A DNA stretch of 64,000 nt from a virus (taxonomy: Duplodnaviria > Caudoviricetes): the IMG/VR virus record IMGVR_UViG_3300012041_000023, positions 6,159 to 70,158 of that record; one strand, given 5' to 3'. The notes under the pieces were generated by a model, which was not told the DNA's origin, did no database searches, and worked only from the letters and a program-made list of their open reading frames with translations. The position numbers were made by a program, and so were the translations under genes. Numbering within the stretch: position 1 is the first letter of the stretch; each line of letters begins with the position of its first letter. This document shows, piece after piece, positions 3,711 through 25,860 of the stretch.

Positions 3711-3932
3711 TCAGTACCTCAACCTCGGAATGGGCGGAATCTTCGCCAGCGTCAGCCCCCGCCGCCTGACCCCGTAGGCGCCGAAGGGATCGGCCGCGGG
3801 ACGCGGCAGCCCCGCCGGCAGCCGGGACGTGCGGATGCGCGGCGGTCCTCCGTAGAGGCGGCCGTAGGGGGCGGCTTTCGCGGACTGCACGATCTCTCGG
3901 AGCGCGGCGCTGATGGCGGTGGAATTTGGCAT
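3711..3932 (-). CDS. small basic protein with N-terminal helix-KA leader (putative internal head protein)
   Basis: 73-aa ORF packed between neighbours; N-terminus AISAALREIVQSAKA. Confidence 0.55.
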   Translation of the reverse strand: MPNSTAISAALREIVQSAKAAPYGRLYGGPPRIRTSRLPAGLPRPAADPFGAYGVRRRGLTLAKIPPIPRLRY

Positions 3933-3935
3933 GAT

Positions 3936-4295
3936 TTAGAACCTACCGCGATAGCGGTTGTTGGGCGCCGGCAGCTTCGGCGCGGGTGGGGCACGGCGGG
4001 CGTCCGGGAACTGCGCATAATACTGATCGGCCGGCATGGGATCGCCGCCGGTGCGGAAGCGTCTGGGCATCTCCACCGTTCGCTCCGCCTGCGCGATGTT
4101 CCAGTCGGAGGGGTCAATCCCATTTTTCCGCAGGTAGGCATTCACGCGGTTATTCCACCAGTAGGGATCCCTATCGTGTGAGACGAAGCGCCCGCCCCCG
4201 CTCATACTCTGCTGCCGCCCCGCTGCCTTCACCCCATCCACCAGATCCCGCAGCGCCGCCTTCACGCACGCCCTGGCCGTCTCGTTGTCCATCAT
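3936..4295 (-). CDS. small basic protein, paralog of 5692..6072
   Basis: GAGGAG RBS before ATG at 4295; ACVKAALRDLVDGVKA leader; ends PNNRYRGRF. Confidence 0.65.
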   Translation of the reverse strand: MMDNETARACVKAALRDLVDGVKAAGRQQSMSGGGRFVSHDRDPYWWNNRVNAYLRKNGIDPSDWNIAQAERTVEMPRRFRTGGDPMPADQYYAQFPDARRAPPAPKLPAPNNRYRGRF

Positions 4296-4306
4296 CGTCG
4301 TTCTCC

Positions 4307-4672
4307 TCACGCCGGCAACAGCAGAAACTCGACCTGACACACCGCGGTGTCCGCGATCCAGAAAGGGGCCACGCTGCTTGCGTGGATGCGGAAGCAGCAA
4401 ACCTCGCCCGCGTTCAATCGAATGAAGTCCGTTCCGCCGGTCGCCTGGCGGATACTGACGAAGTTCGTGGGGTCGCGGTTGATAGCGCAAAAGTATCCGC
4501 CCGTGGAGACCTCCCCGATGTCGATGGCTTCCTCACTCGTCCCCACGCTCTGCCGCTGCCAGGCGAACTGGTTCCCCGAGACGTCCACCTGCAGGTTGTC
4601 TGCCCCGAGTTCAACGACCGTTGAACCCTTGACGAACCGCACCGAGGCGAAGATGGTCGCTTCATCGGCCAT
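4307..4672 (-). CDS. beta-rich hypothetical phage structural protein
   Basis: 121-aa ORF with globular composition, tightly packed in the head operon. Confidence 0.6.
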   Translation of the reverse strand: MADEATIFASVRFVKGSTVVELGADNLQVDVSGNQFAWQRQSVGTSEEAIDIGEVSTGGYFCAINRDPTNFVSIRQATGGTDFIRLNAGEVCCFRIHASSVAPFWIADTAVCQVEFLLLPA

Positions 4673-5692
4673 CTAGCGCCGCCTCCTCGCGGTCGGCTGC
4701 TGCTGCGCCGGCGACGTCGTCCGCGGCAGCGGTCCCGTTGGGGGCACCTGCTTCTGGAGCCGGAGCAAGTCTTCCATCGCTCGCTGGTTGGCGCCGAGCG
4801 GTCCGCCCGTGCCGCCCTGCCCCGGACGCGCGCCCCCGCGTGGCTGGCGGAAGGTGGTGCCGGGCGCCCCGTAGAGGTCCGGGCGCTGCATCTGCATCTG
4901 CAGCCGCTGCTGCTTGAGGTTCTCTTCGAGGATCTGGCGCTGCAGCCGCTGCTGCTTGAGCTGATCCTCCTGGGTGGGCTTGCCCATATAGCCGCCGAGA
5001 TACATCTCTTCGAGCGTGATCGGCGTGCCGTCGTCCCATTTGGCGTTCCTTTGCTCCTCCGGGGTGAACTCCCGCGGACGCAGGGCCGTGCCGCGGAAGA
5101 AGAGATTCGGCGCCTTCGAGCGGAGCTGGAGCATCTGGTCGCGCAGGTTCTGCGACATATACTTTTCCGTGGGACCGTGCCCATACCGGTCGTAGGGATA
5201 GGTGCCGTGAACGTTCGCCCGTCCCCGGTTGCCGGCGTTGAGCAAGTCCGCCTCCTGCCGCGCCCGCTCCAGGTCCGCCGCGGTCGGCGCCCCGCTCGCG
5301 GGCGGCGTCGCACGCCCGTCCGTCGTGGCGGGGGCGTTCGGCTGCCGCGTCTGCGGTGGTGGCACCACCCGCAGCGCGGGCGGTCCGGTCGGCCGCGTGG
5401 GCTGGTTCGGCCGAATCTCTCCCGCGCGTCCCGGTGGCCCAGCGGGGGGCAGCGCCGGCGGCGGTCCCGTGGGTGGGATCATGCGCGGGATGGGGATGCC
5501 CGGCCCCAGATCCCCCTCGCGCAACTGCGGCCGCAACTGCGAGCCCCGCTGCGTGTCCGGGTGCGGCAAGGGCTGGATGCCCCGTCCCACGGGTGCACGC
5601 ACGGGCGGCTTCCCCATCGGCGCCTGCCCCTTCTTCTGCTGCTTCGCCGCTTTGCTCCAGGCGTCTACGCTGGCTACTAGTCGCTCAAGCAT
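4673..5692 (-). CDS. Pro/Gln-rich protein sharing segments with the protease extension
   Basis: TGATG coupling at 5690-5694; shares GTYPY..G.GPT.KY and QPNAPAT..ATPPA motifs with 17..3709. Confidence 0.6.
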   Translation of the reverse strand: MLERLVASVDAWSKAAKQQKKGQAPMGKPPVRAPVGRGIQPLPHPDTQRGSQLRPQLREGDLGPGIPIPRMIPPTGPPPALPPAGPPGRAGEIRPNQPTRPTGPPALRVVPPPQTRQPNAPATTDGRATPPASGAPTAADLERARQEADLLNAGNRGRANVHGTYPYDRYGHGPTEKYMSQNLRDQMLQLRSKAPNLFFRGTALRPREFTPEEQRNAKWDDGTPITLEEMYLGGYMGKPTQEDQLKQQRLQRQILEENLKQQRLQMQMQRPDLYGAPGTTFRQPRGGARPGQGGTGGPLGANQRAMEDLLRLQKQVPPTGPLPRTTSPAQQQPTARRRR

Positions 5693-6072
5693 CAGAACCT
5701 CCCCCGATAGCGATTGTTGGGCGACGGCAGGGGAGGCTTGCCGCGATACTGCACCCACGTGGGGGCTGGCAGTCTTGTTCGCATCGAATCGGCGTAGTAG
5801 ACGGGGTTCAGGTTTATCGGTCCTTGGCGGCTGTAGCGCTGCGGAGTGTAGATTGGCTCACGGCGCCCACCTGCCCACCAATTGGCATACCACCCCTCCC
5901 CCTCCCCTTCATCGTTAGCATTCGGACGCGGCATCGCGTTGCCCGCGTTGGGCGTGTTCAGGATCGGCCCCAACCGCCCCGGCGCACGGCTCACCGGATT
6001 TGCCTTGACACTCGCCACCATCTCGGCGAGCGCACACTTCACTGCCCACACCATCTCATCATTGCTATACAT
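5692..6072 (-). CDS. small basic protein, paralog of 3936..4295
   Basis: AVKCALAEMVASVKA leader; ends PNNRYRGRF. Confidence 0.65.
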   Translation of the reverse strand: MYSNDEMVWAVKCALAEMVASVKANPVSRAPGRLGPILNTPNAGNAMPRPNANDEGEGEGWYANWWAGGRREPIYTPQRYSRQGPINLNPVYYADSMRTRLPAPTWVQYRGKPPLPSPNNRYRGRF

Positions 6073-6271: not shown

Positions 6272-6879
6272 CAGCCTGTCACCGCCACCCGCGTGGGCGT
6301 CACCACCTCGGCCGGCAGCTCCGGCGCCTCCACCGCTCCGTGCCCGTTGGCGCTCTCCTGCTCGAAGGTTGTCTCCCGCGGCTGCTGCAGCTCCTCGACG
6401 CTGCCGTCCGCGAAGACGATGCGGTAGGCGATGAAGTAGCCCTCCAGCACCGCGCCGCGTGCCACGGGGGGCGCCTGCGACATCTGCGCGATCAGCGCCG
6501 CGTGGGCATCGAAGCCCGCCGCCTGCTCCTCGGCCGCGGCGCGGTCCAGGGTTGGCGCTTCGAGTGGCACGAAGTCGCCGGTCTGCTCGTTGCATACGAC
6601 GGGTTGGAACATCTCTACGGTCAAAGGATTCTCCTGTGTATTCGAACTGGCGGCGCCAGGCGTGTGCGTCTCATCCCACGTCCGCCTGGGATCGGGATCC
6701 GGCCGCACCTCGCACACGCCATCCGTCCAGTGCGCGATTTGCCCCTCTGCCGCCTTGATCGTCAGCCGCCGGCCATCCGTGCAGACGATAGGCCCCTGCC
6801 AACGCCCCGGCGTGAGGACGACCGTTCCGCCATCAGGCGCCCCGTCCACGAGCGGTTGCACCCTTCTCTCCACGCTCAC
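6271..6879 (-). CDS. hypothetical protein with a beta-helix-like N-terminal start
   Basis: QPLVDGAPDGGTVVLTPGRW resembles the lead-in to parallel beta-helices; start overlaps the portal stop. Confidence 0.5.
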   Translation of the reverse strand: MSVERRVQPLVDGAPDGGTVVLTPGRWQGPIVCTDGRRLTIKAAEGQIAHWTDGVCEVRPDPDPRRTWDETHTPGAASSNTQENPLTVEMFQPVVCNEQTGDFVPLEAPTLDRAAAEEQAAGFDAHAALIAQMSQAPPVARGAVLEGYFIAYRIVFADGSVEELQQPRETTFEQESANGHGAVEAPELPAEVVTPTRVAVTG

Positions 6880-8531
6880 GCCTCCCAGCCTCGTCCGAGC
6901 CCGTTGTTCATCACGCTCGTGCGCCCACCGGCGCCCTGCACCTTCTCCAGAATCTCTGCCACGCTCGCCACCCGCCCCTTGGGCTGCGCGATCCTGCGCC
7001 TACGCCTTGCCCCCCTGGGCGCCATGAGCGGCAGCCTCGGCGGCAACTGCGGCAGCTCGGGCGGCAGCTCGGGCAGCGGTGGCGGCACGCCCGGCGCCGG
7101 TCCCGTGATCCCTGGCGGCTGCCCCTCCGCGGTCGGCATCAGCCCCGGCGGAAGCTGGGGCGGTCCCTGCCGCGGTCCCTGCTGCGGAGGAGGAGGCTCC
7201 AGACCCGAAGCCTGCGCCTGCGCCAACTGCTGCTGCCGCACGTTCGCCAACTGCTGCTGCAGGTGGGCCTCGGCCTGCTGGTCGATGATCGCTTTCCGCT
7301 TCGCTTCCTCTTTCTCCAGCTCGTCCTTCACGTGCGGTGGAATATCGACGCCCAAAATCTCACAGGCCAGGAGGAGCGGGATGCCAGCGTTGCGGTAGGC
7401 GAGGAGGGCGCCCGCGCGCTGCACCTCGTCCTCCTGCATGATCTCGGTCTCGTCCGGGTGGAACGTGAGCTCGTAGCCCAGATCGTGCAGGAGCTGCTCG
7501 TTCAAGACTTCCGCGATCAGGTCACACTCGGGGATGATCGTTTCCGAGTAGAAGCTCTTGCGGTGCTCCTTGGCCGTGGCAAAATTGGCCGCGTCTTCAA
7601 GCAAGCTCACGGGAATGCCGAACGCCACGCAAATCTTCCGCCGGCTCGCCTCCTCCAGCCCCGGCATCCCCAGGTCCCGAATCGGGGAGCCGAGCACGAT
7701 GGGCTTCACGTCCTCGCCAATGGCCATCACTTTCCAGGCGTTCCTGACCCCCGAGAGCATCCGCTTCCAACCGCTCTCAAGCTCCTTCTTGTCCGCGTCG
7801 CTCGGGTTGCCTTTGACCTGCAGCAAGGTCAAGGGGATGGCTTGCCTCTCGAAGAATTTGGTCGCAAACACCCCCGAGGCGCGCACGAGCTGGGCACTCT
7901 CCAGTGCGACGGCGGCGGGGGAGCGGCCCGGGCCCACTTCCACGAGGGGGTCCGGCAAATGGAAGTAGATCACTTCGTGGGGCTCAAGCGAGTCCTCGCC
8001 CTGCCCCCCGCCCGCGATCTGCCCCTTGTCGCGCAGTCCCCCTTCCTCGAACCACCCCGTCTGCTGGTCGTCGTCGAGGTTCTGTGACTGCCGCCCCCGG
8101 CCAAGCACCCGGGTGAATCCCGCGATGCCGTTGTCCTTGTTGTATTTCTCCCGGATCGTGGTGGCCAGCAAGAACTGCAAGCCCAGCGTCTTGGTGTTCA
8201 GGATGTTCTGCTTCTTCCACAGGTAGCCCCGCCCGAAGAGGCAGAGGCTCGCCTCGATCCGCCACAGGATGCCTTTGAGCTGTCTCTTCCACGGGATCTC
8301 GGCATCGTCCGCCTCATCGCTGGTGCCGATGTGGCTGATCATGAACGGCATCGAAGAGACGGCCTGCGCTCGCTCCTGCGTGCAGCGATACGTCCACGCC
8401 ACCAGGCGATAGCTCTGGGTGACGGTCTTGGCCAGCTCATCCGAATCCCGGCGCAGGAAGGCGGAGTTCAGCTCCAGCGCCTTGACGCCGTCGTAGAGAT
8501 AGAGATTCTTGAAGCTGCCGAAGAGTGCCAC
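6876..8531 (-). CDS. HK97-family phage portal protein with a long Pro/Gln-rich C-terminal tail
   Basis: VAWTYRC..ERAQAVSSMPF, SLCLFGRGY, GRSPAAVA, FFERQAIP, ICVAFGIP..LL motifs; position in the head operon. Confidence 0.85.
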   Translation of the reverse strand: MALFGSFKNLYLYDGVKALELNSAFLRRDSDELAKTVTQSYRLVAWTYRCTQERAQAVSSMPFMISHIGTSDEADDAEIPWKRQLKGILWRIEASLCLFGRGYLWKKQNILNTKTLGLQFLLATTIREKYNKDNGIAGFTRVLGRGRQSQNLDDDQQTGWFEEGGLRDKGQIAGGGQGEDSLEPHEVIYFHLPDPLVEVGPGRSPAAVALESAQLVRASGVFATKFFERQAIPLTLLQVKGNPSDADKKELESGWKRMLSGVRNAWKVMAIGEDVKPIVLGSPIRDLGMPGLEEASRRKICVAFGIPVSLLEDAANFATAKEHRKSFYSETIIPECDLIAEVLNEQLLHDLGYELTFHPDETEIMQEDEVQRAGALLAYRNAGIPLLLACEILGVDIPPHVKDELEKEEAKRKAIIDQQAEAHLQQQLANVRQQQLAQAQASGLEPPPPQQGPRQGPPQLPPGLMPTAEGQPPGITGPAPGVPPPLPELPPELPQLPPRLPLMAPRGARRRRRIAQPKGRVASVAEILEKVQGAGGRTSVMNNGLGRGWEA

Positions 8532-9710
8532 TTACAGTTGTCCCACCCGCGCGTAGACCGGCCGCGCCAGGAGTGCCCCCGTGTTACTCCGCATCACGGG
8601 ATCGAGCCGCTGCCGGTAGCGCGCCCGCTCGCCCCGCGTGGGGATCCTCACCAGCGGCTGGTCCGTGTCGTCGCGCCAATTCGTATTCATCCGCGCCGCA
8701 AACTCCGCCGGTGCCCGGCCCTCCACCCAGTTGGCGATGCCCTGCCGGTAGAGGGGCACGAGTGCCCGAGCGCTTCGGATGTCCTGGACCGCGAAGGGCT
8801 TGCGCGTCATGCCCGGATCCGCCGACGCATCGCCCGCGGTGCGGAAGATGGCGAGATCCCCACCCGCAAAGCGCGCGGACTGTCCTCCCCGCGTACGCAC
8901 CCGTCCCCGGTCCCCGCCGGGCATCCCTGTCTTGAACGGTCCCGCGCGCCGCAGGAACGCCGCCACGCGGGCGAGCACCGATTCCGTGGGTTTTGCCTGC
9001 TGCAGCGCCTGCCGTACCGGGATGCGCGCCGGCACCGCGAGGCTCTGCGGGCCTGGGACCAGTCGCACGCTCTCGGGGGTGCGCGGCAGTTGCAGCCGTC
9101 GCGACGGAGGTGCGGGCTGGTCCAGGAAAAACCCCTCTTCTTTCGCTAATCGCGCACCCGCGGTGTCTCGCCAGGGGCGGAAGGAACCGCGAGTTATGAC
9201 AGCTTCGTGTGGATCAGTAAAGGGCGCGAAGCGCGCATCCGCTGTCACCTGGGCGTTTCTCTCGGGCACCATATACGTCTGGTAACGCCGATCCATGGAA
9301 TCGACGTGCAGCTTGCCGCGCAGCCCCGCCTTGTCCGGGTTCTTACCATGGCGGTAGCCGCCGCGATCGTACGCCTTCGTCGCCCGCTGCAGCCGCGCGC
9401 TGCCATAGCTCCCCACGGGATACAGCGGCTGATCGGGCGCCATGTTGGCCGGCTTCGGTCCCCGTCCCTGGCGCCACTGCGCGCGGTCGTGCAGTTCGCC
9501 GAGCCGGGCGACGATACGCTGGCCGAGCGTCATCTGCTGCGATGGGCGCGCGTTCAGGACGAAGGGGCGCCCCCACTGGGCGAAGCGGGGGTCGTATTCC
9601 CAGCGGTCGCCACGTAGGGGGCGCTCCACGTAGGAGACGGACTCGCCACGGCGGAGACGCACGGGCGCCTTCACCGCACCCATTTGCGCGATCTCGCCCC
9701 ACACGCTCAT
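8532..9710 (-). CDS. Arg-rich protein carrying the helix-K(T) module boundary
   Basis: ATGA overlap at 9707-9710; contains SVLARVAAFLRRAGPFKT and N-terminal GAVKA. Confidence 0.6.
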   Translation of the reverse strand: MSVWGEIAQMGAVKAPVRLRRGESVSYVERPLRGDRWEYDPRFAQWGRPFVLNARPSQQMTLGQRIVARLGELHDRAQWRQGRGPKPANMAPDQPLYPVGSYGSARLQRATKAYDRGGYRHGKNPDKAGLRGKLHVDSMDRRYQTYMVPERNAQVTADARFAPFTDPHEAVITRGSFRPWRDTAGARLAKEEGFFLDQPAPPSRRLQLPRTPESVRLVPGPQSLAVPARIPVRQALQQAKPTESVLARVAAFLRRAGPFKTGMPGGDRGRVRTRGGQSARFAGGDLAIFRTAGDASADPGMTRKPFAVQDIRSARALVPLYRQGIANWVEGRAPAEFAARMNTNWRDDTDQPLVRIPTRGERARYRQRLDPVMRSNTGALLARPVYARVGQL

Positions 9711-12700
9711 CGCGCGCCTCCCATACCGTGGCATCTCTGGGCGACAGCCAGCCGAACTCGCCGCTTCTCATCGCTCGAACCGAATCTCGCTACCATCTGC
9801 AGAGCCGCACGACAATGCGCGGGATCGTGCACGGGATAGCGCCGCCCCGGCAGGGCGAAGGCGCTATCGGGCAAGCGGTTCCTCATGCGTGCGGTCAGCT
9901 CGGCCTTGAAGGGGTTGTTCAACAGCCGCGCCGCACCGCGCAAGATGCGTGTGAGTGCCGGCCCCTCCTGCATAAGCGGTCCCGCCGTCTCCTGCAGAAC
10001 ACGACTCACGGGCACTCGGACTGGCACGCGCCCCGGAGGTGCTAGAGAGAGTGCGTCAGTTCTGGGGGCGTTGAACACGGTGCCATCGGGATCGAAACGC
10101 CAGCTCCTCACGATACGCCCTGAAGGAATCGCGTTTTTAGCCTTGGGGAAGCCATCCCGAGGATCGACCTGAATATCCGGCCCCTGTGCCACCTCGACCA
10201 CAAAAGTGGGGTGTCCCGTGCGTCCTGGATTGTCCCGTCCGAAATTGACCGTAGATTCCGCAATCCCAAATTGGGGAGCGAAACTCGTCCCCTCGCTTGG
10301 GTGCGAAAAGCGCCCGGTGCTTCTGATCTTCCCGTGCGTCACGATGGAAGCCGCCTCCGCTGCCGTGAGCCCACGAAACACGGTATTTGGGCTTCGCTGT
10401 AGATCAAAGGACGGGCCGTGTCGAAGTCTCAATACGTCAAAGTAATCTCGATCTGACGCCTTCGCGCCGCTGCGCAGGAACCGCACCACGCCGCGCAGGA
10501 TGGCCTGGGCCGCACTCGGCTGCGCCGTGGGTGGGATGGTGCGCTCCAGCTCCGCCACCGGCACGCGGGCCGGGAACGCCTCCGGCGGCAGCGTCCGCTC
10601 CACGGCGGGCGGTGTCGCTCGCCCTCCCGTGGTCGCGGGGGCGTTGGGCTGCGCGGTCCTGGTCCTGCTGCCCGGCGCGGCGCCCATCGTGTAGCGGCTG
10701 TCATCCGTGCGCGGCAGCACCCGTCCGCGCCGCACCCAGCCCGCCGTGCCCTGCGTCCGCCGCGGATCGCCGAGGGGGAGCTTCCGGTAATCCTCGGGCT
10801 CCAGCGCGGGGTTGATGAGCCGCCCGCCGGGACCCACGTGGGTGTCGGGCGGCGGTGGCGTCTCACCCGGCTTCACCGCGCCCATAACCTCGCCCGTGCG
10901 GCTGTCCACGATATTGCCGTCCGCCATCAGGTGATAGCGGGGCGCGGCCTGTGTGGGCCGCGCCGCCGTGGGGCCGTGGGGCGGATCGCTCTGGCGGGTG
11001 AAATACGATTCCGGGGGTTGCTCCTGGTTACGCAGCGCCCGATAGCGCGCTTCTGCCTCCAACCGCCCCCGCTCAATCTGCTCGGGCGTGGCGGTGGGAC
11101 CGGGCGGACCGAGGCGGCTCCGGCGTGACTGCCCCGAAAAGATCGAGCGCGGCTCGATCAACTGATGGGGTCGGTTGACGGGCTCGTCTGGAACTGCGTC
11201 TGGAAAGTGTTGGGCAGTCTCCTTGACCTTGGCGACTAAAGCCTCCCACTCCGCCCGCAATTGTTGTGTCTCGGGTGAGTAAGCGCGGGTCGGAAGGCGT
11301 CTGCCCGCTGCCGTGTTTTCCTTGGCGTAGTTGTTATTCAAGCGCCCGGTCACATCGTGGAGTTCTTGTCGAAGTCTTCGATACTCTGGATTCTCCGCCT
11401 TCATCCCGCCGTAGCAGTCGTGGTCATCGTGCCGCCGCTTCCGCCGGATGGGCCGCACCCCGCGGCCGCGCACCACCAGCGCTTCCTGGCTCGTGGTGCT
11501 CATATCCTTGTAGGCGGTGGCGTCATGGGGATCCCAGTCGAAGCCGTGGGGGCCGAGGTCACTCTTCAGGGCGCGAGGCGCGAGGCGCAGCACCTCCGCG
11601 GCCCGTGACAGGAGCGAGGGCGGCGGGGGCTTGGCGATGCGGGCAGCCGCGCCGAGCGGAACATGCGACGGGTAGCCCGGCACCCAGTTCGCCGCGTCCA
11701 GGTTGGAGGCGAGCGAGCCCGGCCGCCACGGCGGATCGAGAATGTGATCGGCGAGCGCTCCCGTGGCACGCGCCACGCCCCTGGTCCGTGCGAGGATGCC
11801 CGGCTTCGGGCGCACGGTCGCCGGCGGCAGGTCCCGCAGGGCTGGATGGTAGGGCACCTGCCGGCGCACCATGTCGACCGGGCCTCCCACGAAGCGGTTC
11901 TCCTTGCGGCGCGGATCGAGATACCCCGCCGGCTGCGAGGCGTGGCGGAGGAGATCGTCGAGCGGTTGGCCCGAGACGCGGCGGCGGATCAGGTCCTCGA
12001 TCTGCCTCCCCTGCTCGGCACGGCGCTGGTCGCCGATGAGTGCCATGCGCTTGGTGGTGCGGGAGAGTGCCGGGTAGAGCATAAATCCCAGCGATCCCGC
12101 GTAGATGTCGACGTTTTGCCGCCGCGCATCCCGCATGGGGTCCTTGCCCTGCGCCAGCACCTGGCGCACCGGCACCCGCTCGCGGGTGTCATACGGGGCG
12201 GGGGCAATCACGTCGCCCATCCGCTGCACCGCCGCCTTGGTGGCGAGGAGTGCCGCCCGCGTTGGGGATGCGAGGGAGGTCCGCGGCACAGGGGACGGGG
12301 ACGCGAACATATTCATCCGTCCCGCCGCGCCCAGATTCCGGCTGATCGCACGCGCCACCGCGAGGTGTCCCGGATAGGGGATCTTGGGCAGTGCGTTCGC
12401 GGGCAGGTTCAGTCCCGGCACGGGGCCGTAGGGACCTAGCGGCGAAATCCAGTCGCGGTAGTCGCCGCCGTGCATGGCGTCCTGATAACCCACGGCAAAC
12501 TGCAGCGCACCCAGCCCTGCGTGGACCGGTCGGCTGGAGAGCACGCGGCCCAGCCCGCGCGCCACCCCACCCGCCGCCTGCCCCACCCGCGCGAGCTGCT
12601 GACGGCGTGCGGCGCGTGCCGCCTCGTCCGCGAGATACGCCTGACGCGCCGAGAGGATGCGGGGCTGCTCCGCCTTCACACCCCCCGCCCTCCGCAAGAG

Positions 12701-15463
12701 GCCCGCCACCCGCGCCAGCAGCGGCTCCGGCGGGGTAGCGCGGAAGGCGTTCGGCGGGGGTTTCGGCACGCGGAACCCGGGCGGCGCGTTCGGCGGCGCT
12801 TCATAGCCCACGGGCACGGCGGGCTGTCCGTAGGGCACGCGCCACACGGCGACGGCGCGGGCCTTGGAAGGCTTCGGGGATCCTGGCGGCACTTCTTTCT
12901 CCCATGCCTGCTTCAAGCGGTCCAGATACGACCGTCCCAGCCATTCCCAGTCCGTGGAGGCGGCCGGCGTCGGCGGCCGGTCGAAGAGACGGCCGCGCTC
13001 GAGCCGCAGGTGCTCGGGAACCGGATCGCCCACGGGCACCGGGGGACCGAGCAACTGGTCGGCGTAGGGGCTGCCGCTCGTCCCGGGCGGAGGCGCGTAG
13101 ACCTCCCAATCGTAGCGCCGGGGATAGTGGCGGGTAAAGCGCGCTTCCTTCTCCTTCTTCAGCCGGTGCGCCATCAGCCCCGTCGCGGCGACCGCACCGG
13201 CCCCGACGACGGCCCGGTCGATCTCTTTGCGGTTGGGCTGCTGGTCGATCCAGTTATTGATGAAGTCCACCTCCGTGCGCGGTGCGACCTGGATCGCGGG
13301 GGTGGGATAGAAGCGCACGCCCACGTGGGCGGGACTGCCCTGCCAGGGATACCAGCCGCCGTAGATGTGCGGGGCCAGCGGCGAGAAGCGCAGGCCCACC
13401 GTGCCGGGCGCGGAGATCGAGGTCTGCGGGATCCCCGTCACCCCGATGTTCGGGTTGCGAATGCGGATCTTGTCGCCGATCTGGTAGCCGGTCTTCCCCC
13501 GCTTGATGAGGGGCTTGGGCTTCGGCCGGGTGTCGAACGGCAGCGGTGCCTCGACGTCCGCCTTGACGGGGCTGCGGCGCAGGAGGCTCCCCACGCGCTG
13601 CAAGAGGGAGGTCGGCGGTCCCGTCGCGGGCTTGCGCTGCAGGAGATTGCGGATCAGTCCTGGGTTCCCGCCCTCGTAGCCCATGAACACCGGTTTCCCG
13701 GTAGGGCCCTGCCGCCACACCGCCACGGGCGCGTCCGGCTTGGGCTCGGGCGGCACCTCGGCCTGGTAGGCGTTCTTGATCCGCCGCTTCACGTCATCCA
13801 TGTAGAGCGCCCAGTCGCCCACCTGCGGCGGGTTCTGGGCGGTGGGCAGACGGGCCTCCACGTCCCCCACGCGGAGCACCCCGTTCGCGTCCACCGTGTC
13901 CACCCGGCGGGGGTAGTCCCCGATCCGGTGGACGGCGGGATCCCACTGCTGATAGAAACGTCGCGCTCCCAGCGTGCCGAGCAGGGCGCTACCGCCGATG
14001 GCAAGGGCCGCGTCGCGGCGGGCGTCCGGGTTCTGGTCCAGCACCCGGTTGATCTGCTTGCCGGGTATCCTGGCGAACACGGTGGGGCCCGGCTGCGGGT
14101 AGAGCCGGAATCCATAGCCGACCGGGTTCTTGCGCCACGCATCCAGCGGGCTCATGTTCTCGGGCGGCGGCCAGCCCCGCGGGTAGAGCGTCACCTGCTG
14201 GATGGGCAAGCCTCGCTCAAAGGGCGTGACCTGCAAGCTGGCGGTGGACGGGAAGCGCACCGGGAAGCCGAGCCGCCCAGAGTCCGGCTGCACGTCGGGC
14301 CACGGGAAGCGCACCTGCCCCACGCGCCCGATCTCGGGGCGGGGCTCGGGGCGACCGGCCTTGCGGGGCTTTACCTGGCGTGTGGGCGCCTGCCGCGTGT
14401 CGTGGGGCGGCGGCGCCTCGATGTCGCCGAAGCGCTGCACCTCCGCCTTGAAGGGTCCCTTCCCCACAAACCTCGACACCCCGTGCAGAACCCGTGTGAG
14501 GATCGGTTCCTCGTGAACAGCCATGCGCCCCGCCTGCTCAAGCACCGTTCGCGCCGGGACGCGGTGTGTCAAGGGGGGCAGGTTGTACTCGGCCCGCACA
14601 TGAGGAGGCACGAGGCGGCCCTCCTGAATGGCTCGTTCCACCGACCGTCGATGCAGTAACGGCGGCGTCGTCGTGGGATGGAACACGACGAACTCGTTCT
14701 GTGCCTCATGCACACCAATAAACCCTTGACGCTGCGCGGCTGCAGCCGCCTTGTCGATCAGCCGCTGCAGCCCGTCCGTATCGTACATGTGCCTCGGGGC
14801 CAACTCGGGGTGTGCCGCCTCAACGTCCCGCTTGAGCCGCTGCCACTCTAGTGCCGGCATTAGCTTGGTTCGGTCCACACGCGTCGCGACGACCGCCCCA
14901 CCGCCGCGATCAGCCGCGTTGGCATCCGGCCGCGCTCCTGCATTGGAGTAGAGGCTCCTGGCATAATCTCGATCCGGCGTAAAATAGACGCCCCGAGGCT
15001 CGGGGGCGGGGCGTCCGCCACGAAGCAGCATTTGGCGCAAACCGAAGCGGTTCGGATCGAAACCGTGTTGCTCAATCCGCCCTGCGTTGTCGCGCCCAGT
15101 CCCATGAAAGACCGCGTCCGCCTCAAACTCCTTGCGCGTCATTTGCCACGGCTCTTTGCGCTGCGCCTGGCGCGGATCGTTCGGAGGCGGCGCCTCCACG
15201 TAGCGATCCACCGGGGCCTTCGCCGCACTCGCGACCGCCTGCCAGAAGTCGCTTTTCGCGCCGCCGGGTCTCACGCCGACAATCCCCACTCTCGGATCCA
15301 CAACGGGCTGACCGCCGACGATCCCCGTGATGCCCCCTGCGCCGCCCTGGAAGGCGGGGTTCCCGGAAGGACCCTGGCCCTGGCCCGAGCCCCCGAAGCC
15401 CCCGCCGCCGCCGCCCGGGAGTCCCGGTAACGAGATACGTCGCCCGCCCCGACCGCCCATCAT
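9707..15463 (-). CDS. ~1918-aa modular polyprotein with two ADP-ribosyltransferase-like domains, paralogous modules and a C-terminal DUF6582-like domain
   Basis: GGAGG RBS and ATGA overlap at 15460-15463. Motifs VFHGT...GVYFTPDRDYA...NEFVVF and VFRG...GTSFA. C-terminus RNRLPDSAFALPGRRYPVHDPAH. Confidence 0.7.
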   Translation of the reverse strand: MMGGRGGRRISLPGLPGGGGGGFGGSGQGQGPSGNPAFQGGAGGITGIVGGQPVVDPRVGIVGVRPGGAKSDFWQAVASAAKAPVDRYVEAPPPNDPRQAQRKEPWQMTRKEFEADAVFHGTGRDNAGRIEQHGFDPNRFGLRQMLLRGGRPAPEPRGVYFTPDRDYARSLYSNAGARPDANAADRGGGAVVATRVDRTKLMPALEWQRLKRDVEAAHPELAPRHMYDTDGLQRLIDKAAAAAQRQGFIGVHEAQNEFVVFHPTTTPPLLHRRSVERAIQEGRLVPPHVRAEYNLPPLTHRVPARTVLEQAGRMAVHEEPILTRVLHGVSRFVGKGPFKAEVQRFGDIEAPPPHDTRQAPTRQVKPRKAGRPEPRPEIGRVGQVRFPWPDVQPDSGRLGFPVRFPSTASLQVTPFERGLPIQQVTLYPRGWPPPENMSPLDAWRKNPVGYGFRLYPQPGPTVFARIPGKQINRVLDQNPDARRDAALAIGGSALLGTLGARRFYQQWDPAVHRIGDYPRRVDTVDANGVLRVGDVEARLPTAQNPPQVGDWALYMDDVKRRIKNAYQAEVPPEPKPDAPVAVWRQGPTGKPVFMGYEGGNPGLIRNLLQRKPATGPPTSLLQRVGSLLRRSPVKADVEAPLPFDTRPKPKPLIKRGKTGYQIGDKIRIRNPNIGVTGIPQTSISAPGTVGLRFSPLAPHIYGGWYPWQGSPAHVGVRFYPTPAIQVAPRTEVDFINNWIDQQPNRKEIDRAVVGAGAVAATGLMAHRLKKEKEARFTRHYPRRYDWEVYAPPPGTSGSPYADQLLGPPVPVGDPVPEHLRLERGRLFDRPPTPAASTDWEWLGRSYLDRLKQAWEKEVPPGSPKPSKARAVAVWRVPYGQPAVPVGYEAPPNAPPGFRVPKPPPNAFRATPPEPLLARVAGLLRRAGGVKAEQPRILSARQAYLADEAARAARRQQLARVGQAAGGVARGLGRVLSSRPVHAGLGALQFAVGYQDAMHGGDYRDWISPLGPYGPVPGLNLPANALPKIPYPGHLAVARAISRNLGAAGRMNMFASPSPVPRTSLASPTRAALLATKAAVQRMGDVIAPAPYDTRERVPVRQVLAQGKDPMRDARRQNVDIYAGSLGFMLYPALSRTTKRMALIGDQRRAEQGRQIEDLIRRRVSGQPLDDLLRHASQPAGYLDPRRKENRFVGGPVDMVRRQVPYHPALRDLPPATVRPKPGILARTRGVARATGALADHILDPPWRPGSLASNLDAANWVPGYPSHVPLGAAARIAKPPPPSLLSRAAEVLRLAPRALKSDLGPHGFDWDPHDATAYKDMSTTSQEALVVRGRGVRPIRRKRRHDDHDCYGGMKAENPEYRRLRQELHDVTGRLNNNYAKENTAAGRRLPTRAYSPETQQLRAEWEALVAKVKETAQHFPDAVPDEPVNRPHQLIEPRSIFSGQSRRSRLGPPGPTATPEQIERGRLEAEARYRALRNQEQPPESYFTRQSDPPHGPTAARPTQAAPRYHLMADGNIVDSRTGEVMGAVKPGETPPPPDTHVGPGGRLINPALEPEDYRKLPLGDPRRTQGTAGWVRRGRVLPRTDDSRYTMGAAPGSRTRTAQPNAPATTGGRATPPAVERTLPPEAFPARVPVAELERTIPPTAQPSAAQAILRGVVRFLRSGAKASDRDYFDVLRLRHGPSFDLQRSPNTVFRGLTAAEAASIVTHGKIRSTGRFSHPSEGTSFAPQFGIAESTVNFGRDNPGRTGHPTFVVEVAQGPDIQVDPRDGFPKAKNAIPSGRIVRSWRFDPDGTVFNAPRTDALSLAPPGRVPVRVPVSRVLQETAGPLMQEGPALTRILRGAARLLNNPFKAELTARMRNRLPDSAFALPGRRYPVHDPAHCRAALQMVARFGSSDEKRRVRLAVAQRCHGMGGAR

Positions 15464-16143
15464 GATTCCTCCATGGCGCGGCGCGCGTTGTGCCAGGTGG
15501 GCAGGAAATAGTACTTGGGACCGTAAGGCAGGATCGGCCGCACCCAGTCCTCGTGCTCCTCGCCGCCGTAGATGAACATCCTTTGCGGCGCGACGACGTG
15601 CACCGCCGCGGCAAGCCCCGCCTTGAAGCGCGCTCGGCTCTCGGGATGCGCCGCCGTCTGACACTCACACGCCGCCATCGGCGGGTTCTTCGGGATGCCC
15701 TGGAAGGCGAAGGAGTAACTCTCCGCGGTGCTCCAGTTGAGGGAGGGGATTACTTTGAGACCAGCACCCTGGAACAGTCGCCCGAGCGTCCGCGTCCGTA
15801 CGATCGCGGCCTGCTGCGCGGGGAGCGGATCATCCGCCCACACACTGAAGTCGGGCTCCACGACGCTCTCCCATCCCTGGCGCTTAATCTCCGCGGTCTT
15901 GCCTTGCGGATCCCGCGCCAGATCGTTGAAACGCTCGTCGTCCACGTAGAAGCAAAGCACAGACCCAGCCGCCACTCGCCCTCTGGGTTCGCCAGCGCCG
16001 AACGTACTCCACACGCCCAGCGCGCCCGCCGTCAGGGGATAGCCGAACCCCGGATGCGTGTGCGTCGGCAGCGTGCGGCCCAGCTTCCCCGGATCGAGCG
16101 CGGGGATCGGCGGTGCCGTGGGGCGCTGGAGGGGGAGCGGCAT
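15460..16143 (-). CDS. DUF4417-family protein
   Basis: CFYVDDERF...VVEPDFSVWAD...KVIPSLNWS pattern; followed by an MGGRG-start gene. Confidence 0.75.
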   Translation of the reverse strand: MPLPLQRPTAPPIPALDPGKLGRTLPTHTHPGFGYPLTAGALGVWSTFGAGEPRGRVAAGSVLCFYVDDERFNDLARDPQGKTAEIKRQGWESVVEPDFSVWADDPLPAQQAAIVRTRTLGRLFQGAGLKVIPSLNWSTAESYSFAFQGIPKNPPMAACECQTAAHPESRARFKAGLAAAVHVVAPQRMFIYGGEEHEDWVRPILPYGPKYYFLPTWHNARRAMEES

Positions 16144-17498: not shown

Positions 17499-17876
17499 CT
17501 ACTCTGGATGTTCCAAGCACAGCACCGGCGCCACCGGACGCTCCCCGCCGGTGCAGCCGTAGTCCACGAACAGCACGCTCCGAGCGCCGGGCCCAACGCG
17601 CGGCATCGTCTCATCCTCACGCACCGGGCAGCCGAGCAGCGTGATCGGCGGCATCTCCGAGAGATCCCCGTAGACGTAGCGGCCGTCGCCCGTCTTGATG
17701 CTGATAATCAGCGCCATCGTCTCGGGGTGCAGGATGAACACGCAGTCGCCGCGTTGGCGCTGGTTGTAGGGCATGGCGTAGTAGAGGTGGATCAGGTCGT
17801 CACCCACCATCCAGTCCTGCGCCATCGCCATCACCGCCACCGTGGCGCCCTTCAGCAGGTCCATGCCCCTCCTCAT
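17499..17876 (-). CDS. hypothetical protein
   Basis: 125-aa ORF whose start overlaps the terminase stop. Confidence 0.5.
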   Translation of the reverse strand: MRRGMDLLKGATVAVMAMAQDWMVGDDLIHLYYAMPYNQRQRGDCVFILHPETMALIISIKTGDGRYVYGDLSEMPPITLLGCPVREDETMPRVGPGARSVLFVDYGCTGGERPVAPVLCLEHPE

Positions 17877-19315
17877 GCTCCAAAGAGGAGCAGCCTCCCA
17901 CTCACCGCCAGCTTTGCGAACGCCCCCGATGCCGCATCAATCGCGTCATCATGGGCACCCGAGGGGAAGAGTCGGAACTCCTCCAGCAGATCCGCGTTCC
18001 AGCGCGCCTTGAGGAGCTTCACGTTCCCCGCCTCGCACTGCGCCGCGAAGGGCTGGGCGCGCACTTCCTTGCTGCCCGTCACCCGCTCGGCGTGGATGCT
18101 GTGTCCCGCGAGCAGCCGGACCAGCACCTCCGCCACTTCCTTGCCCGCGGCGCCGGGATCCTGGGGAACCCAGGTCGTCACCTCGCCCGCGTAGCGTTCC
18201 TTGTCCCGCTGGGCGGTCTCCACCAGGCGGGAGTTGCGTTCCCCGGCCGACCACTGCCCGGCGGTGAAGTCCTCCACGTAGAAGAGGTCGCCCGCCCGCG
18301 CCATCAAGATCGACGCACTCCTATCGCCGCCCGCCTGGGTAGCGGCCAGGTCCCAGTACCTCACCCGCCGCGCGGACCTTGGCACCACATCCACGGTCTC
18401 GATCTTGTCGGTGCGGATCGCGCCACCTTCGAGTGGCTGCGGATCGCCCTGATAGAGCGCCGCAAACGACCGAGCCCCCAGCACCGTGCGGATCCCCGCC
18501 AGCGCCGTCTCATCGAAGCGCGCGGGGCAGAGCGCCTGCCCGGGCGCACGTCCCAGGAGGTCGCCGGGCTCGGCCAGCGCCGGCAGCCGCAGCACCGTCC
18601 AGTTCGGGCCGTCTTCGCTGTCAAGGATGCGGCCGGCGAGGTCCATCTCGTGCCAGCGGGTCATGGTGAGCACGATGGAACCGCCGGGCTCGAGGCGGGT
18701 ATACAGGTCGTCGCGATACCAGTCCCACACCCGCTCCTGGTAGGCCGGGCTGTCGGCTTCCTCGCGGTTCTTGACCGGGTCATCGATCAGGATCAGCTCG
18801 GCGCCCTGGCCGGTCACACCCCCGCCCACCCCCACCGCGCGCACGCCCCCGCCTTCGGTCGTCTCCCAGTCCTCCGCGGCGTTGCGCTCCTTGGAAAGCG
18901 GCAGCCCCACCTGCGTGGCCACCCGCCGCGCCTTACGGCTAAACTTGTTCGCGAGCGTCTGGTTGTAGGCGCCGATGATAACCCGCAGCGCCGGGTCCTG
19001 CTCGAGCCTGTGGATCGGATAGCGGACCGTGCCACACTCCGACTTGCCACTCCGCGGGTGCAGGAACAGCATCAGCCGCTTACACCTACCCCACGTCACC
19101 CGGTCCAGGAGACTCGTCAGGATCTGGAGGTGCAGCCAATCCCAGTCCCAGGTCGGTGAGACACTCTGCAACCAGGGGCGGAACCTGGGCGGCATCCCCC
19201 GGAGAATCTGGTCCAGCTCCGCGGCCGTGTCCGTTCCGAACCAGGAGCTCGGAGACGCCGCGCCAGCGGTCGCTGTCCGTGAGGGGCGCGTGCGCCTTGC
19301 CTCGGTCGCTGCCAT
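17873..19315 (-). CDS. terL: terminase large subunit
   Basis: Walker A HPRSGKS, Walker B LILIDDP, nuclease WDLA and HDDAIDA motifs. The start may be downstream of 19315. Confidence 0.92.
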   Translation of the reverse strand: MAATEARRTRPSRTATAGAASPSSWFGTDTAAELDQILRGMPPRFRPWLQSVSPTWDWDWLHLQILTSLLDRVTWGRCKRLMLFLHPRSGKSECGTVRYPIHRLEQDPALRVIIGAYNQTLANKFSRKARRVATQVGLPLSKERNAAEDWETTEGGGVRAVGVGGGVTGQGAELILIDDPVKNREEADSPAYQERVWDWYRDDLYTRLEPGGSIVLTMTRWHEMDLAGRILDSEDGPNWTVLRLPALAEPGDLLGRAPGQALCPARFDETALAGIRTVLGARSFAALYQGDPQPLEGGAIRTDKIETVDVVPRSARRVRYWDLAATQAGGDRSASILMARAGDLFYVEDFTAGQWSAGERNSRLVETAQRDKERYAGEVTTWVPQDPGAAGKEVAEVLVRLLAGHSIHAERVTGSKEVRAQPFAAQCEAGNVKLLKARWNADLLEEFRLFPSGAHDDAIDAASGAFAKLAVSGRLLLFGA

Positions 19316-25333: not shown

Positions 25334-25687
25334 TCACGCCGGCGGCCCCCGCCGCTCCTTCGCCATGTCCGCCACGATCTGGCGCAGCTCCGCGATCTCC
25401 GCTTTCGCCTCGGCCAGTTTATCGCTCGTCGCCACGAAGCGTTCATCGGAGCGGTTGGACAGGTCCGCCGCCACATCATCGGCCTTCACCGTAAGCGTTG
25501 CCGCGACGCTGTCCGTGCGGTCGGCCAGGTCCATCGCGTTGGCGTCTGCTTTCACGCCCGCGGCTTTGACATCCCGCGAGACGGAGCGCAGTTCCCGGAT
25601 GACCATGACAACCCCCGCCGCCAGTCCCCCGACGAGGGCGGTCACGGCGGTCAAGATCTGTAGGATCCCGCTGACGTCGATTGTCAC
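25334..25687 (-). CDS. holin-like protein (one TM plus coiled coil)
   Basis: N-terminal hydrophobic helix followed by a charged coiled coil. Confidence 0.45.
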   Translation of the reverse strand: MTIDVSGILQILTAVTALVGGLAAGVVMVIRELRSVSRDVKAAGVKADANAMDLADRTDSVAATLTVKADDVAADLSNRSDERFVATSDKLAEAKAEIAELRQIVADMAKERRGPPA

Positions 25688-25860
25688 TTCTTACCGTTTC
25701 TCTTACCAAACCAGTAACCGACGACCGCTAACAACAAGCCGAACACCTCCGTTGAGAGTTGCGGACGGAGGACAATGATCGTTCCGCCGCCGATCAGGAT
25801 CACGAGCGATAAATAGAAATCGTGCCTGGAAACGCCCGGCGATTCGTCATTGAGACTCAT
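25684..25860 (-). CDS. small two-TM holin-like protein
   Basis: Two hydrophobic segments and a basic C-terminus (KRNGKK). Confidence 0.45.
   Translation of the reverse strand: MSLNDESPGVSRHDFYLSLVILIGGGTIIVLRPQLSTEVFGLLLAVVGYWFGKRNGKK

Follow-up and report, generated by a model that had tools for sequence, protein, structure and literature searches.

Polyvalent proteins are long polypeptides of phages and plasmids that combine 2-15 distinct domains (Iyer, Burroughs, Anand, de Souza and Aravind 2017, PMC5512222), and their autoproteolysis by an embedded zincin-like (MPTase) domain has been proposed (PMC5512222). The prohead proteases of T4 and SPN3US, on the other hand, process a large set of head proteins at a single consensus site (PMC10052503, PMC9026906), removing leaders of 20-24 residues and long propeptides, which in T4 address the proteins to the head (PMC10052503, PMC9026906, PMC9024508). 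Two further systems are built on HK97-fold shells: the scaffold domain of HK97, which comprises 102 residues (PMC12749128), and the native Myxococcus xanthus encapsulin, whose targeting peptide contains TVGSLRR (PMC7925596). Here we describe a locus of an uncultured phage that can be compared with all of them. The window, i.e., the whole 64,000-nucleotide stretch that was analysed, corresponds to bases 6159-70158 of the 70,158-bp linear IMG/VR record IMGVR_UViG_3300012041_000023. It contains an open reading frame (ORF) of 1918 amino acids (aa), referred to as the giant ORF, and a neighbouring ORF, P0002, in which a short sequence that we call the joint cassette is repeated. Residue numbers of the giant ORF refer to its 1985-aa longest frame, starting at GTG 15664, while the 1918-aa form starts at ATG 15463.

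A preliminary description of this DNA had proposed that both ORFs encode modules separated by a recurring helix followed by a lysine, and that the phage's own protease would cut after this lysine and release separate proteins inside the head. The analyses presented here established that the cassette is real, specific to these two ORFs and located at module edges, and that it travels with the modules. The giant ORF and P0002 probably encode head-associated cargo proteins in which the joint cassette is functional. As for the cassette lysines being cut by the head-maturation protease of the phage, we give this reading a probability of about 0.5.

A repeated joint cassette at module edges

The cassette comprises about 40 residues and consists of RVPxRxVL, a Pro-rich spacer of 3-12 residues, a helix, a Gly/Pro turn, a hydrophobic or small residue and, finally, Lys followed by Ala, Ser or Thr (written K/A, K/S or K/T, the slash standing for the putative scissile bond). 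The helix is basic and amphipathic, spans 11-13 residues and appears in two subtypes, LLxRVxxLLRR and LTR(V/I)L(H/R)G..R. All seven boundary strings of the preliminary description, as well as its two additional K/A sites (K1143 and K1422 of the giant ORF), were found at the positions given, on the minus strand and only in the two ORFs. The boundary lysines are K406, K701, K997, K1367, K1735 and K1920 in the giant ORF and K268 in P0002, which define copies c1 to c7 (Table 1). This lysine is invariant in 9/9 cassettes (alignment A3), though the giant ORF contains 222 Arg versus 56 Lys; with arginine about four times commoner, one would expect Arg to predominate at a position that only had to be basic. 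Moreover, the six hydrophobic-K-[AST] tripeptides of the giant ORF are, without exception, proposed boundaries, and its other K-[AST] sites carry Asp, Arg, Ser, Pro or Gly ahead of the lysine.

In order to score the cassette, a hidden Markov model (HMM) was built from the seven helix-lysine segments of the window and applied to the six-frame translation of the whole contig. The seven copies reached 14-26 bits, while anything else in the six frames remained at or below 5.3 bits and the reversed control at or below 8.1 bits. Since scoring copies with an HMM built from them is circular, a leave-one-out analysis was added, in which c2, c6 and c7 were recovered at 21-37 bits (37 for c7) and c1 and c3 were marginal. 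The flanking motifs claimed earlier were confirmed as well: the upstream RVPxRxVL and the downstream (D/Y)(V/I)(E/I)APxPxD(T/P)R, the latter coinciding with DNA repeat families D1 and D2, each gave four regular-expression copies, all in the two ORFs, with none elsewhere among 121,407 translated residues and none in the reversed control. Of the seven 12-mers with the highest hydrophobic moment in the giant ORF, five belong to the helices, that of c5 ranking second. Compared as DNA, the copies match one another at only 66-80% over short stretches and, therefore, are not recent duplicates; the c3 and c7 regions share 39% identity over 67 residues of protein.

The giant ORF is strongly basic (net charge +101), as is P0002 (+36), and cassettes and paralogy delimit about 9-10 modules in it. 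Modules 2 and 3 are paralogs end to end (29% identity, E=5e-10), each with a terminal cassette, and their alignment extends from about 14 residues past the previous K/A up to the helix. The C-terminal tail, which is the only giant module with a family match, aligns with PHROG 16160 (E=1.8e-12) from profile position 2, which falls on A1921, the residue after K1920; it also shares 55% identity with the C-terminal end of gp231 from Streptomyces phage Kela. The tail had been described as DUF6582-like, and the PHROG match upholds a family assignment, but the similarity to DUF6582 itself is weak (E=0.006). Likewise, the claim that the boundaries fall at domain edges was borne out by the paralogy of modules 2 and 3 and by the start of the tail at A1921, but not for the domains that had been called ADP-ribosyltransferase (ART)-like, which received no HMM support. 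Searching the contig with PF18760 (ART-PolyVal) produced no match at E<=10, and hmmscan of the single modules detected no ART or other signature domain. A language model placed residues 150-365 next to ART-PolyVal (0.88) and residues 1736-1885 next to Arr-ms, PARP and Tox-ART-HYD1 (0.89); both look-alikes are at the level of leads, and the 'ART-like' labels are used here as leads only.

No Pfam, NCBIfam or PADLOC family matched the giant ORF, phmmer found no match for it in the PDB, and HMM searches detected in it neither a known virion domain such as MuF nor a peptidase domain. Transmembrane segments in the modules were considered and rejected, as no 19-residue Kyte-Doolittle window exceeded 1.3. 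An AlphaFold2 (AF2) model of module 1 with c1, made from a single sequence, had a predicted local distance difference test (pLDDT) score of 39 and was unusable. Apart from the cassette, a peptide of about 15 residues, of the type QPNAPAT...GRATPPA, is common to the giant ORF (approximately residues 1672-1687), a 361-aa ORF (4673-5758, minus strand) and P0004, and represents a second short tag linking head-module proteins.

A single relative of the giant ORF was found, L004, a 2,099-bp (2.1-kb) metagenome contig of JGI sample 3300014205 that carries P0029, a 255-aa protein identified by a search among shorter proteins. The HMM built from the window alone finds two cassettes in L004, at 23 and 26 bits, and the contig holds modules 2 and 3 at about 66-69% identity. 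In c2, 17/17 residues are identical despite synonymous differences in 7/17 codons, within a surrounding region of 68% identity, and the synonymous-difference rate is 41% in c2 versus 38% across the rest of the L004 alignment. In addition, c2 is one of only two fully conserved 16-residue stretches among 305 aligned residues of the window and L004, and the identity ends directly past the K/A. Such a pattern of codon changes shows that the cassette is under purifying selection, which ends at the putative scissile position. Between modules 2 and 3, L004 contains an insert of 95 residues that begins at the K/A and has its own complete cassette at the end. Together with the paralogy of modules 2 and 3, this insert identifies the module plus its C-terminal cassette as the unit that is duplicated, moved and gained. 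The L004 chain has its own start codon at module 2, with a 49-residue leader ending in Lys/Ala-Glu, and it is therefore unfused to the first module of the giant ORF. Both L004 modules are preceded by Lys/Ala-Glu-x-Met-Gly-Ser-Thr-Ala-Pro, a putative post-cut motif unlike that of the window. The reading frame of L004 (53-2097, plus strand) shifts inside module 2, giving overlapping ORFs at 53-820 and 478-2097, a change due either to misassembly or to a genuine frameshift.

Searches for further relatives revealed how rare this architecture is. At full length, the giant ORF is an orphan whose homolog search gave only itself. Among 1.84 billion representative proteins, a nine-cassette profile retrieved only the giant ORF (242 bits, six copies) and a tandem-repeat artefact, P0031, in a search where single-copy carriers fall below the threshold and their absence is thus not demonstrated. 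When metagenomes and IMG/VR were scanned with the module 2-3 alignment, L004 was again the only contig found, and a degenerate DNA pattern for c2 had 0 matches in viral and genome collections.

Candidate lysine junctions in the head operon

The head genes all lie on the minus strand. The ATG of the giant ORF overlaps the stop codon of the DUF4417 nuclease gene in an ATGA, its own stop codon overlaps Met9 of P0002 in the same way (both deduced from the coordinates), and the P0002 stop abuts the portal start, so that these genes form one translationally coupled head operon. The giant ORF is thus placed between the genes for the large terminase (TerL) and the portal protein, on the same strand and with coupled starts. 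In a relative, L002, the genes for the terminase and the portal protein directly adjoin each other, without the terminase-to-portal block; therefore, the 9-kb block that holds the giant ORF looks like an accessory insertion of this lineage. The 125-aa ORF of this block is 33% identical to capsid residues 520-624, in the A-domain region (E=6e-14), and covers positions 147-229 of Pfam Phage_capsid.

The major capsid protein (locus L001) is an HK97-fold protein with an N-terminal extension, PF05065 (Phage_capsid) covering residues 394-667 of 670 (E=1.3e-54). Its best solved relative is the RcGTA capsid protein; a capsid protein search in IMG/VR found none. About 10 residues ahead of the invariant GGYLVP N-arm, the protein contains Thr-Lys383/Ala-Ala. 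Lys383/Ala384 aligns with a K/A in the four closest relatives (P0006, P0007, P0024 and P0026), and the other phage capsid proteins all match from residues 373-386 onwards. The maturation cut of HK97 gp5 is located at K103/S104. By analogy, Lys383/Ala384 would be the capsid maturation junction, and this predicted junction has the same hydrophobic-Lys/Ala dipeptide context as the cassettes. The extension, of about 390 residues, is roughly four times as long as that of HK97 and splits at a helix-Lys190/Ser into a basic, Gly/Pro-rich part (residues 1-190, net charge +23) and an acidic part (residues 191-390, -42). The helix-Lys190/Ser is kept in P0006, from JGI sample 3300071358, where it looks similar by eye; as a candidate member of the cassette family it was dropped, since the HMM gave no statistical support.

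A probable prohead protease domain is found at the C-terminus of P0004, in agreement with the preliminary description. These 154 residues share 41% identity (E=4e-40) with the N-terminal domain of P0007, one of three proteins (with P0024 and P0026) in which the protease domain is fused ahead of the capsid protein, and His68, Ser121 and His127 are invariant in the alignment. The context supports this assignment strongly, the sequence only weakly. In both P0004 and P0007, the domain is preceded by Val-Lys/Ala-Leu. The lysine near the N-terminus of the portal protein is also present, with its Asp-Gly-x-Lys/Ala context, in the distant relative L002. Taking the cassette, capsid, protease and portal sites together, the position ahead of the lysine is occupied by Val, Leu, Phe, Met, Thr or Ala.

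The rest of P0004 (residues 1-1075) is a Pro/Gln/Arg/Gly-rich extension without family match, with a single cassette-like helix, lacking the lysine, at about residue 340 and a poly-Gly/Thr tract at about residue 900; the 361-aa ORF mentioned above looks paralogous to its N-terminal part. Candidate leaders of 14-24 residues ending in K/A were seen on P0002, the portal protein and small head-module ORFs, and such helix-K/A leaders are commoner in the head module than elsewhere. The idea of a universal N-terminal leader of helix plus K/A on head proteins found no statistical support, because the leave-one-out analysis linked only three small paralogs. These basic paralogs, at 3936-4490, 5692-6072 and 3711-3932 (all minus strand), share a C-terminal 9-mer, PNNRYRGRF, and have N-terminal leaders of 19-24 residues ending in Lys/Ala. 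The only clear leader look-alike outside the head genes occurs in the ORF at 25334-25690 (minus strand), far from the head module, where an internal Met is followed by a 14-residue helix ending in Val-Lys/Ala-Ala.

Table 1. Location of the joint cassettes, related motifs and head genes; positions refer to the window unless otherwise indicated.
Feature	Position	Strand	Remarks
Cassette c1, residues 366-409, K406/A	14438..14569	-	After module 1; marginal in leave-one-out
Cassette c2, residues 666-704, K701/A	13553..13669	-	Between paralogous modules 2 and 3
Cassette c3, residues 962-1000, K997/A	12665..12781	-	End of module 3
Cassette c4, residues 1332-1370, K1367/S	11555..11671	-	Weakest copy
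Cassette c5, residues 1698-1738, K1735/A	10451..10573	-	Before the second ART-like module (label is a lead only)
Cassette c6, residues 1881-1923, K1920/A	9896..10024	-	Before the DUF6582-like tail
Cassette c7 in P0002, residues 235-271, K268/T	8922..9032	-	Joins the two modules of P0002
Short K1143/A site	12230..12253	-	Precedes the downstream motif and a copy of RVPVRQVL
Short K1422/A site (Met-Lys/Ala-Glu)	11393..11410	-	
Downstream motif, copy 1	15170..15202	-	
Downstream motif, other copies	14393-14425, 13526-13558, 12182-12214	-	
N-terminal helix with K149/A	15212..15253	-	K137/S just upstream; after the 70-residue Gly-rich stretch that starts the giant ORF
Leader on P0002	9669-9710	-	Akin to the N-terminal helix of the giant ORF
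C-terminal tail module, residues 1921-1985	9710..9904	-	PHROG 16160; weak DUF6582
TerL	17873-19315	-	First in the head gene order
125-aa ORF, truncated capsid-protein paralog	17499-17876	-	Directly after the terminase gene
Two ORFs without family match	Between 125-aa ORF and DUF4417 nuclease	-	
DUF4417 nuclease	15460-16143	-	Upstream neighbour of the giant ORF
Giant ORF, 1918 aa	9707..15463 (ATG 15463 to stop 9707)	-	Chain of about 9-10 modules
P0002	8532..9734 (400 aa), or 392 aa from Met9 at 9710	-	Next ORF; two modules joined by c7
Portal gene	6876..8531	-	Asp-Gly-x-Lys17/Ala near the N-terminus
Several small ORFs	Between portal and P0004	-	
P0004, 1230 aa	17-3709	-	Probable prohead protease domain at the C-terminus; last in the head gene order
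Probable prohead protease domain of P0004	17..475	-	Val-Lys/Ala-Leu just before; K1079 codon at 473-475
Major capsid protein, 670 aa, locus L001	Contig 3969-5981, just outside the window	-	

Proposed packaging and cutting, and rival explanations

The reading that we favour would work as follows. The giant ORF and P0002 would encode strongly basic, head-internal cargo built as polyproteins, in which a cassette ends each module. The polyprotein would co-assemble with the capsid protein during procapsid assembly, possibly through the binding of its basic helices to the very acidic, scaffold-like half of the capsid extension, the charges of the giant ORF (+101) and of capsid residues 191-390 (-42) being complementary. 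Docking on this region would explain why the helix is conserved, beyond the dipeptide alone. The S78-like maturation protease, which would trim the capsid protein after a lysine, would also cut after the cassette lysines, and about 10 polypeptides of 55-313 residues would be released, stay in the head and leave it with the DNA. A bolder version, which we put forward as a tentative possibility, regards the cassette as a portable 'load-and-cut' element whose helix docks cargo on the acidic scaffold, much like an encapsulin targeting peptide, and whose terminal Lys/Ala is cut, so that new cargo would be gained by inserting a module together with its cassette, as has happened in L004.

Several results weigh against cutting by the head protease, and some of them also qualify claims of the preliminary description. 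The residue at position +2 after the lysine is mostly Glu or Asp in the cassettes versus Ala, Leu or Val at the capsid and protease junctions, and the cassette HMM gives no score to the helix-K190/S site of the capsid protein. The scan with a boundary motif separated the copies from the controls and re-found the cassette in L004, but c4 and c5 failed the leave-one-out analysis and rest on visual likeness. Similarly, nothing comparable to the cassette turned up in the other frames or in the reversed control, but the KA dipeptide alone showed a mild, approximately 2-fold enrichment (12 observed versus 6.3 expected). With respect to the enzyme, placed by the preliminary description at nucleotides 20-472, context and identity to the fusion domain spoke for a protease, but Peptidase_S78 (PF04586) scored E=0.15 (12.6 bits) in P0004 and E=0.0011 (19.6 bits) in P0007, the cut-off being 21 bits. 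PF04586 matched nothing when the contig was searched with it, and hhalign to a canonical S78 domain aligned the His region weakly (E=0.04). The fold search was uninformative: the AF2 model of the protease domain, made from 4 sequences, had a pLDDT of 51, Foldseek found no match for it at E<=0.001 (T4 gp21 and the Epstein-Barr virus protease appeared only at E of about 0.4-0.6), and the best VIA-align hits were unrelated beta-barrels (Z 5.3). Furthermore, N4 vRNAP is a large virion protein that is packaged uncut (PMC5512222). Lastly, the record is a fragment with 62% completeness (CheckV), and the comparative support comes from a single 2.1-kb relative, with no other multi-copy carrier among the 1.84 billion representatives.

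If the giant protein remains whole, the cassettes could be docking tags only, that is, multivalent peptides binding the capsid or scaffold, much as T4 or P1 capsid-targeting sequences or encapsulin targeting peptides do, that load one intact giant onto many capsid subunits, the chain being uncut or cut at few sites. Basic amphipathic helices facing a very acidic, scaffold-like part of the capsid protein suit this explanation, as do the resemblance of RVGSLLRR, contained in c2, to the M. xanthus encapsulin targeting peptide LTVGSLRR (PMC7925596) and the encapsidation of very large proteins such as N4 vRNAP and P1 DarB (PMC5512222, PMC9024508). A single tag per chain would be enough for docking, yet the tags stand precisely at module ends and move with the modules; nor do electrostatics alone explain an invariant lysine in an Arg-rich protein or a conservation that ends at the K/A. 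We consider docking without cutting unlikely.

The giant ORF might also not encode virion cargo at all, but a late, non-packaged multi-domain protein (for instance, a polyvalent protein for counter-defence) with the cassette as a linker or oligomerisation element. That no known virion domain was found fits this possibility, and so does the accessory appearance of the 9-kb block, which is absent from L002 and in which a nuclease gene and a fragment of a capsid gene are also found. The translational coupling in the head operon, directly ahead of the portal gene, the extreme basic charge, which is typical of internal head proteins, and the short peptide common to the giant ORF, the protease-carrying protein and another head-module protein all point the other way and make this explanation improbable.

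A function after ejection, in which the helices bind a membrane or target in the host and cutting is done by the host or by the polyprotein's own protease, is less probable still. Even though basic amphipathic helices commonly bind membranes, and polyvalent proteins are predicted to be autoproteolytic, possibly after injection (PMC5512222), the giant ORF has no strongly hydrophobic segment and no peptidase domain detectable by HMM, while the capsid, protease and portal junctions, with the same Lys/Ala context, point to the head protease. Finally, chance in a GC-rich, Arg/Ala/Leu-rich frame, where a G+C content of about 67% yields many Arg-, Ala-, Leu- and Pro-rich strings, was refuted by the specificity of the HMM (nothing comparable in the other five frames, other genes or reversed sequences), by the exclusive flanking motifs and by the cassette having been independently re-found in L004, conserved through synonymous change.

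Should the cassette lysines be cut by the head protease, the protein content of the mature head would be readable from the sequence, and the locus would represent a true polyprotein strategy for injected proteins, undescribed for HK97-type phages in the literature searched. The cassette would then also be a compact, transferable tag to load and release foreign proteins in HK97-fold shells. If, in addition, it acts as a load-and-cut element, one tailed-phage gene would supply the head with about 10 separate proteins for injection, expressed as a polyprotein, and the loading of phage cargo might be evolutionarily linked with that of encapsulins. The case is limited by its rarity, with one short relative, and by the phage being uncultured.

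Comparison with described systems

The architecture had been presented as undescribed, which holds for the repeated joint cassette inside one protein of an HK97-type system, for which we found no description, but not for its frame, which is already known from polyvalent proteins (PMC5512222) and from the multi-substrate prohead proteases of T4 and SPN3US. Like the polyvalent proteins, the giant ORF is very long, appears to be composed of many unrelated, shuffled modules and lies near the portal and terminase genes, and packaging and delivery with the DNA are predicted for both. Unlike them, it has no MPTase or typical polyvalent domain detectable by HMM, and the description of polyvalent proteins (PMC5512222) does not include joints that repeat one cassette with an invariant lysine.

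The resemblance to HK97 gp4/gp5, with its delta domain, and to phage D3 (PMC12749128) includes an HK97-fold capsid protein, an N-terminal scaffold extension, a probable protease encoded just upstream and a predicted junction after a lysine. Nevertheless, the extension is about 390 rather than about 100 residues long, and the probable protease forms the C-terminal end of a protein of 1230 aa. To our knowledge, cargo polyproteins are not among the protease substrates of HK97.

Encapsulin targeting peptides (PMC7925596) are, like the cassette helices, short peptides in which hydrophobic residues are followed by Arg/Lys, and they bind the inner face of an HK97-fold shell. They differ in being C-terminal, extended rather than helical, and uncut, whereas the cassettes are internal. 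The likeness concerns one or two copies and is taken as a lead, that is, as a resemblance without a claim of membership.

The systems of T4 (IPI-III and Alt, with the capsid-targeting sequence and gp21) and of SPN3US and phiKZ (gp245/gp175) share with the proposed one a single head protease, a short consensus and many substrates. T4 cargo includes the ADP-ribosyltransferase Alt, a parallel to the ART likeness that is a lead only. Their proteases are of the gp21 type and cut after Glu (L/I-x-E or A-x-E), with the loss of N-terminal propeptides. At the boundaries described here, Lys occupies the corresponding place in 9/9 cassettes, and the protease domain resembles S78-type fusions rather than gp21. 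Altogether, the giant ORF would belong to an HK97-type system with Lys at P1, in which the sites would be internal to one chain and separate modules that are all kept.

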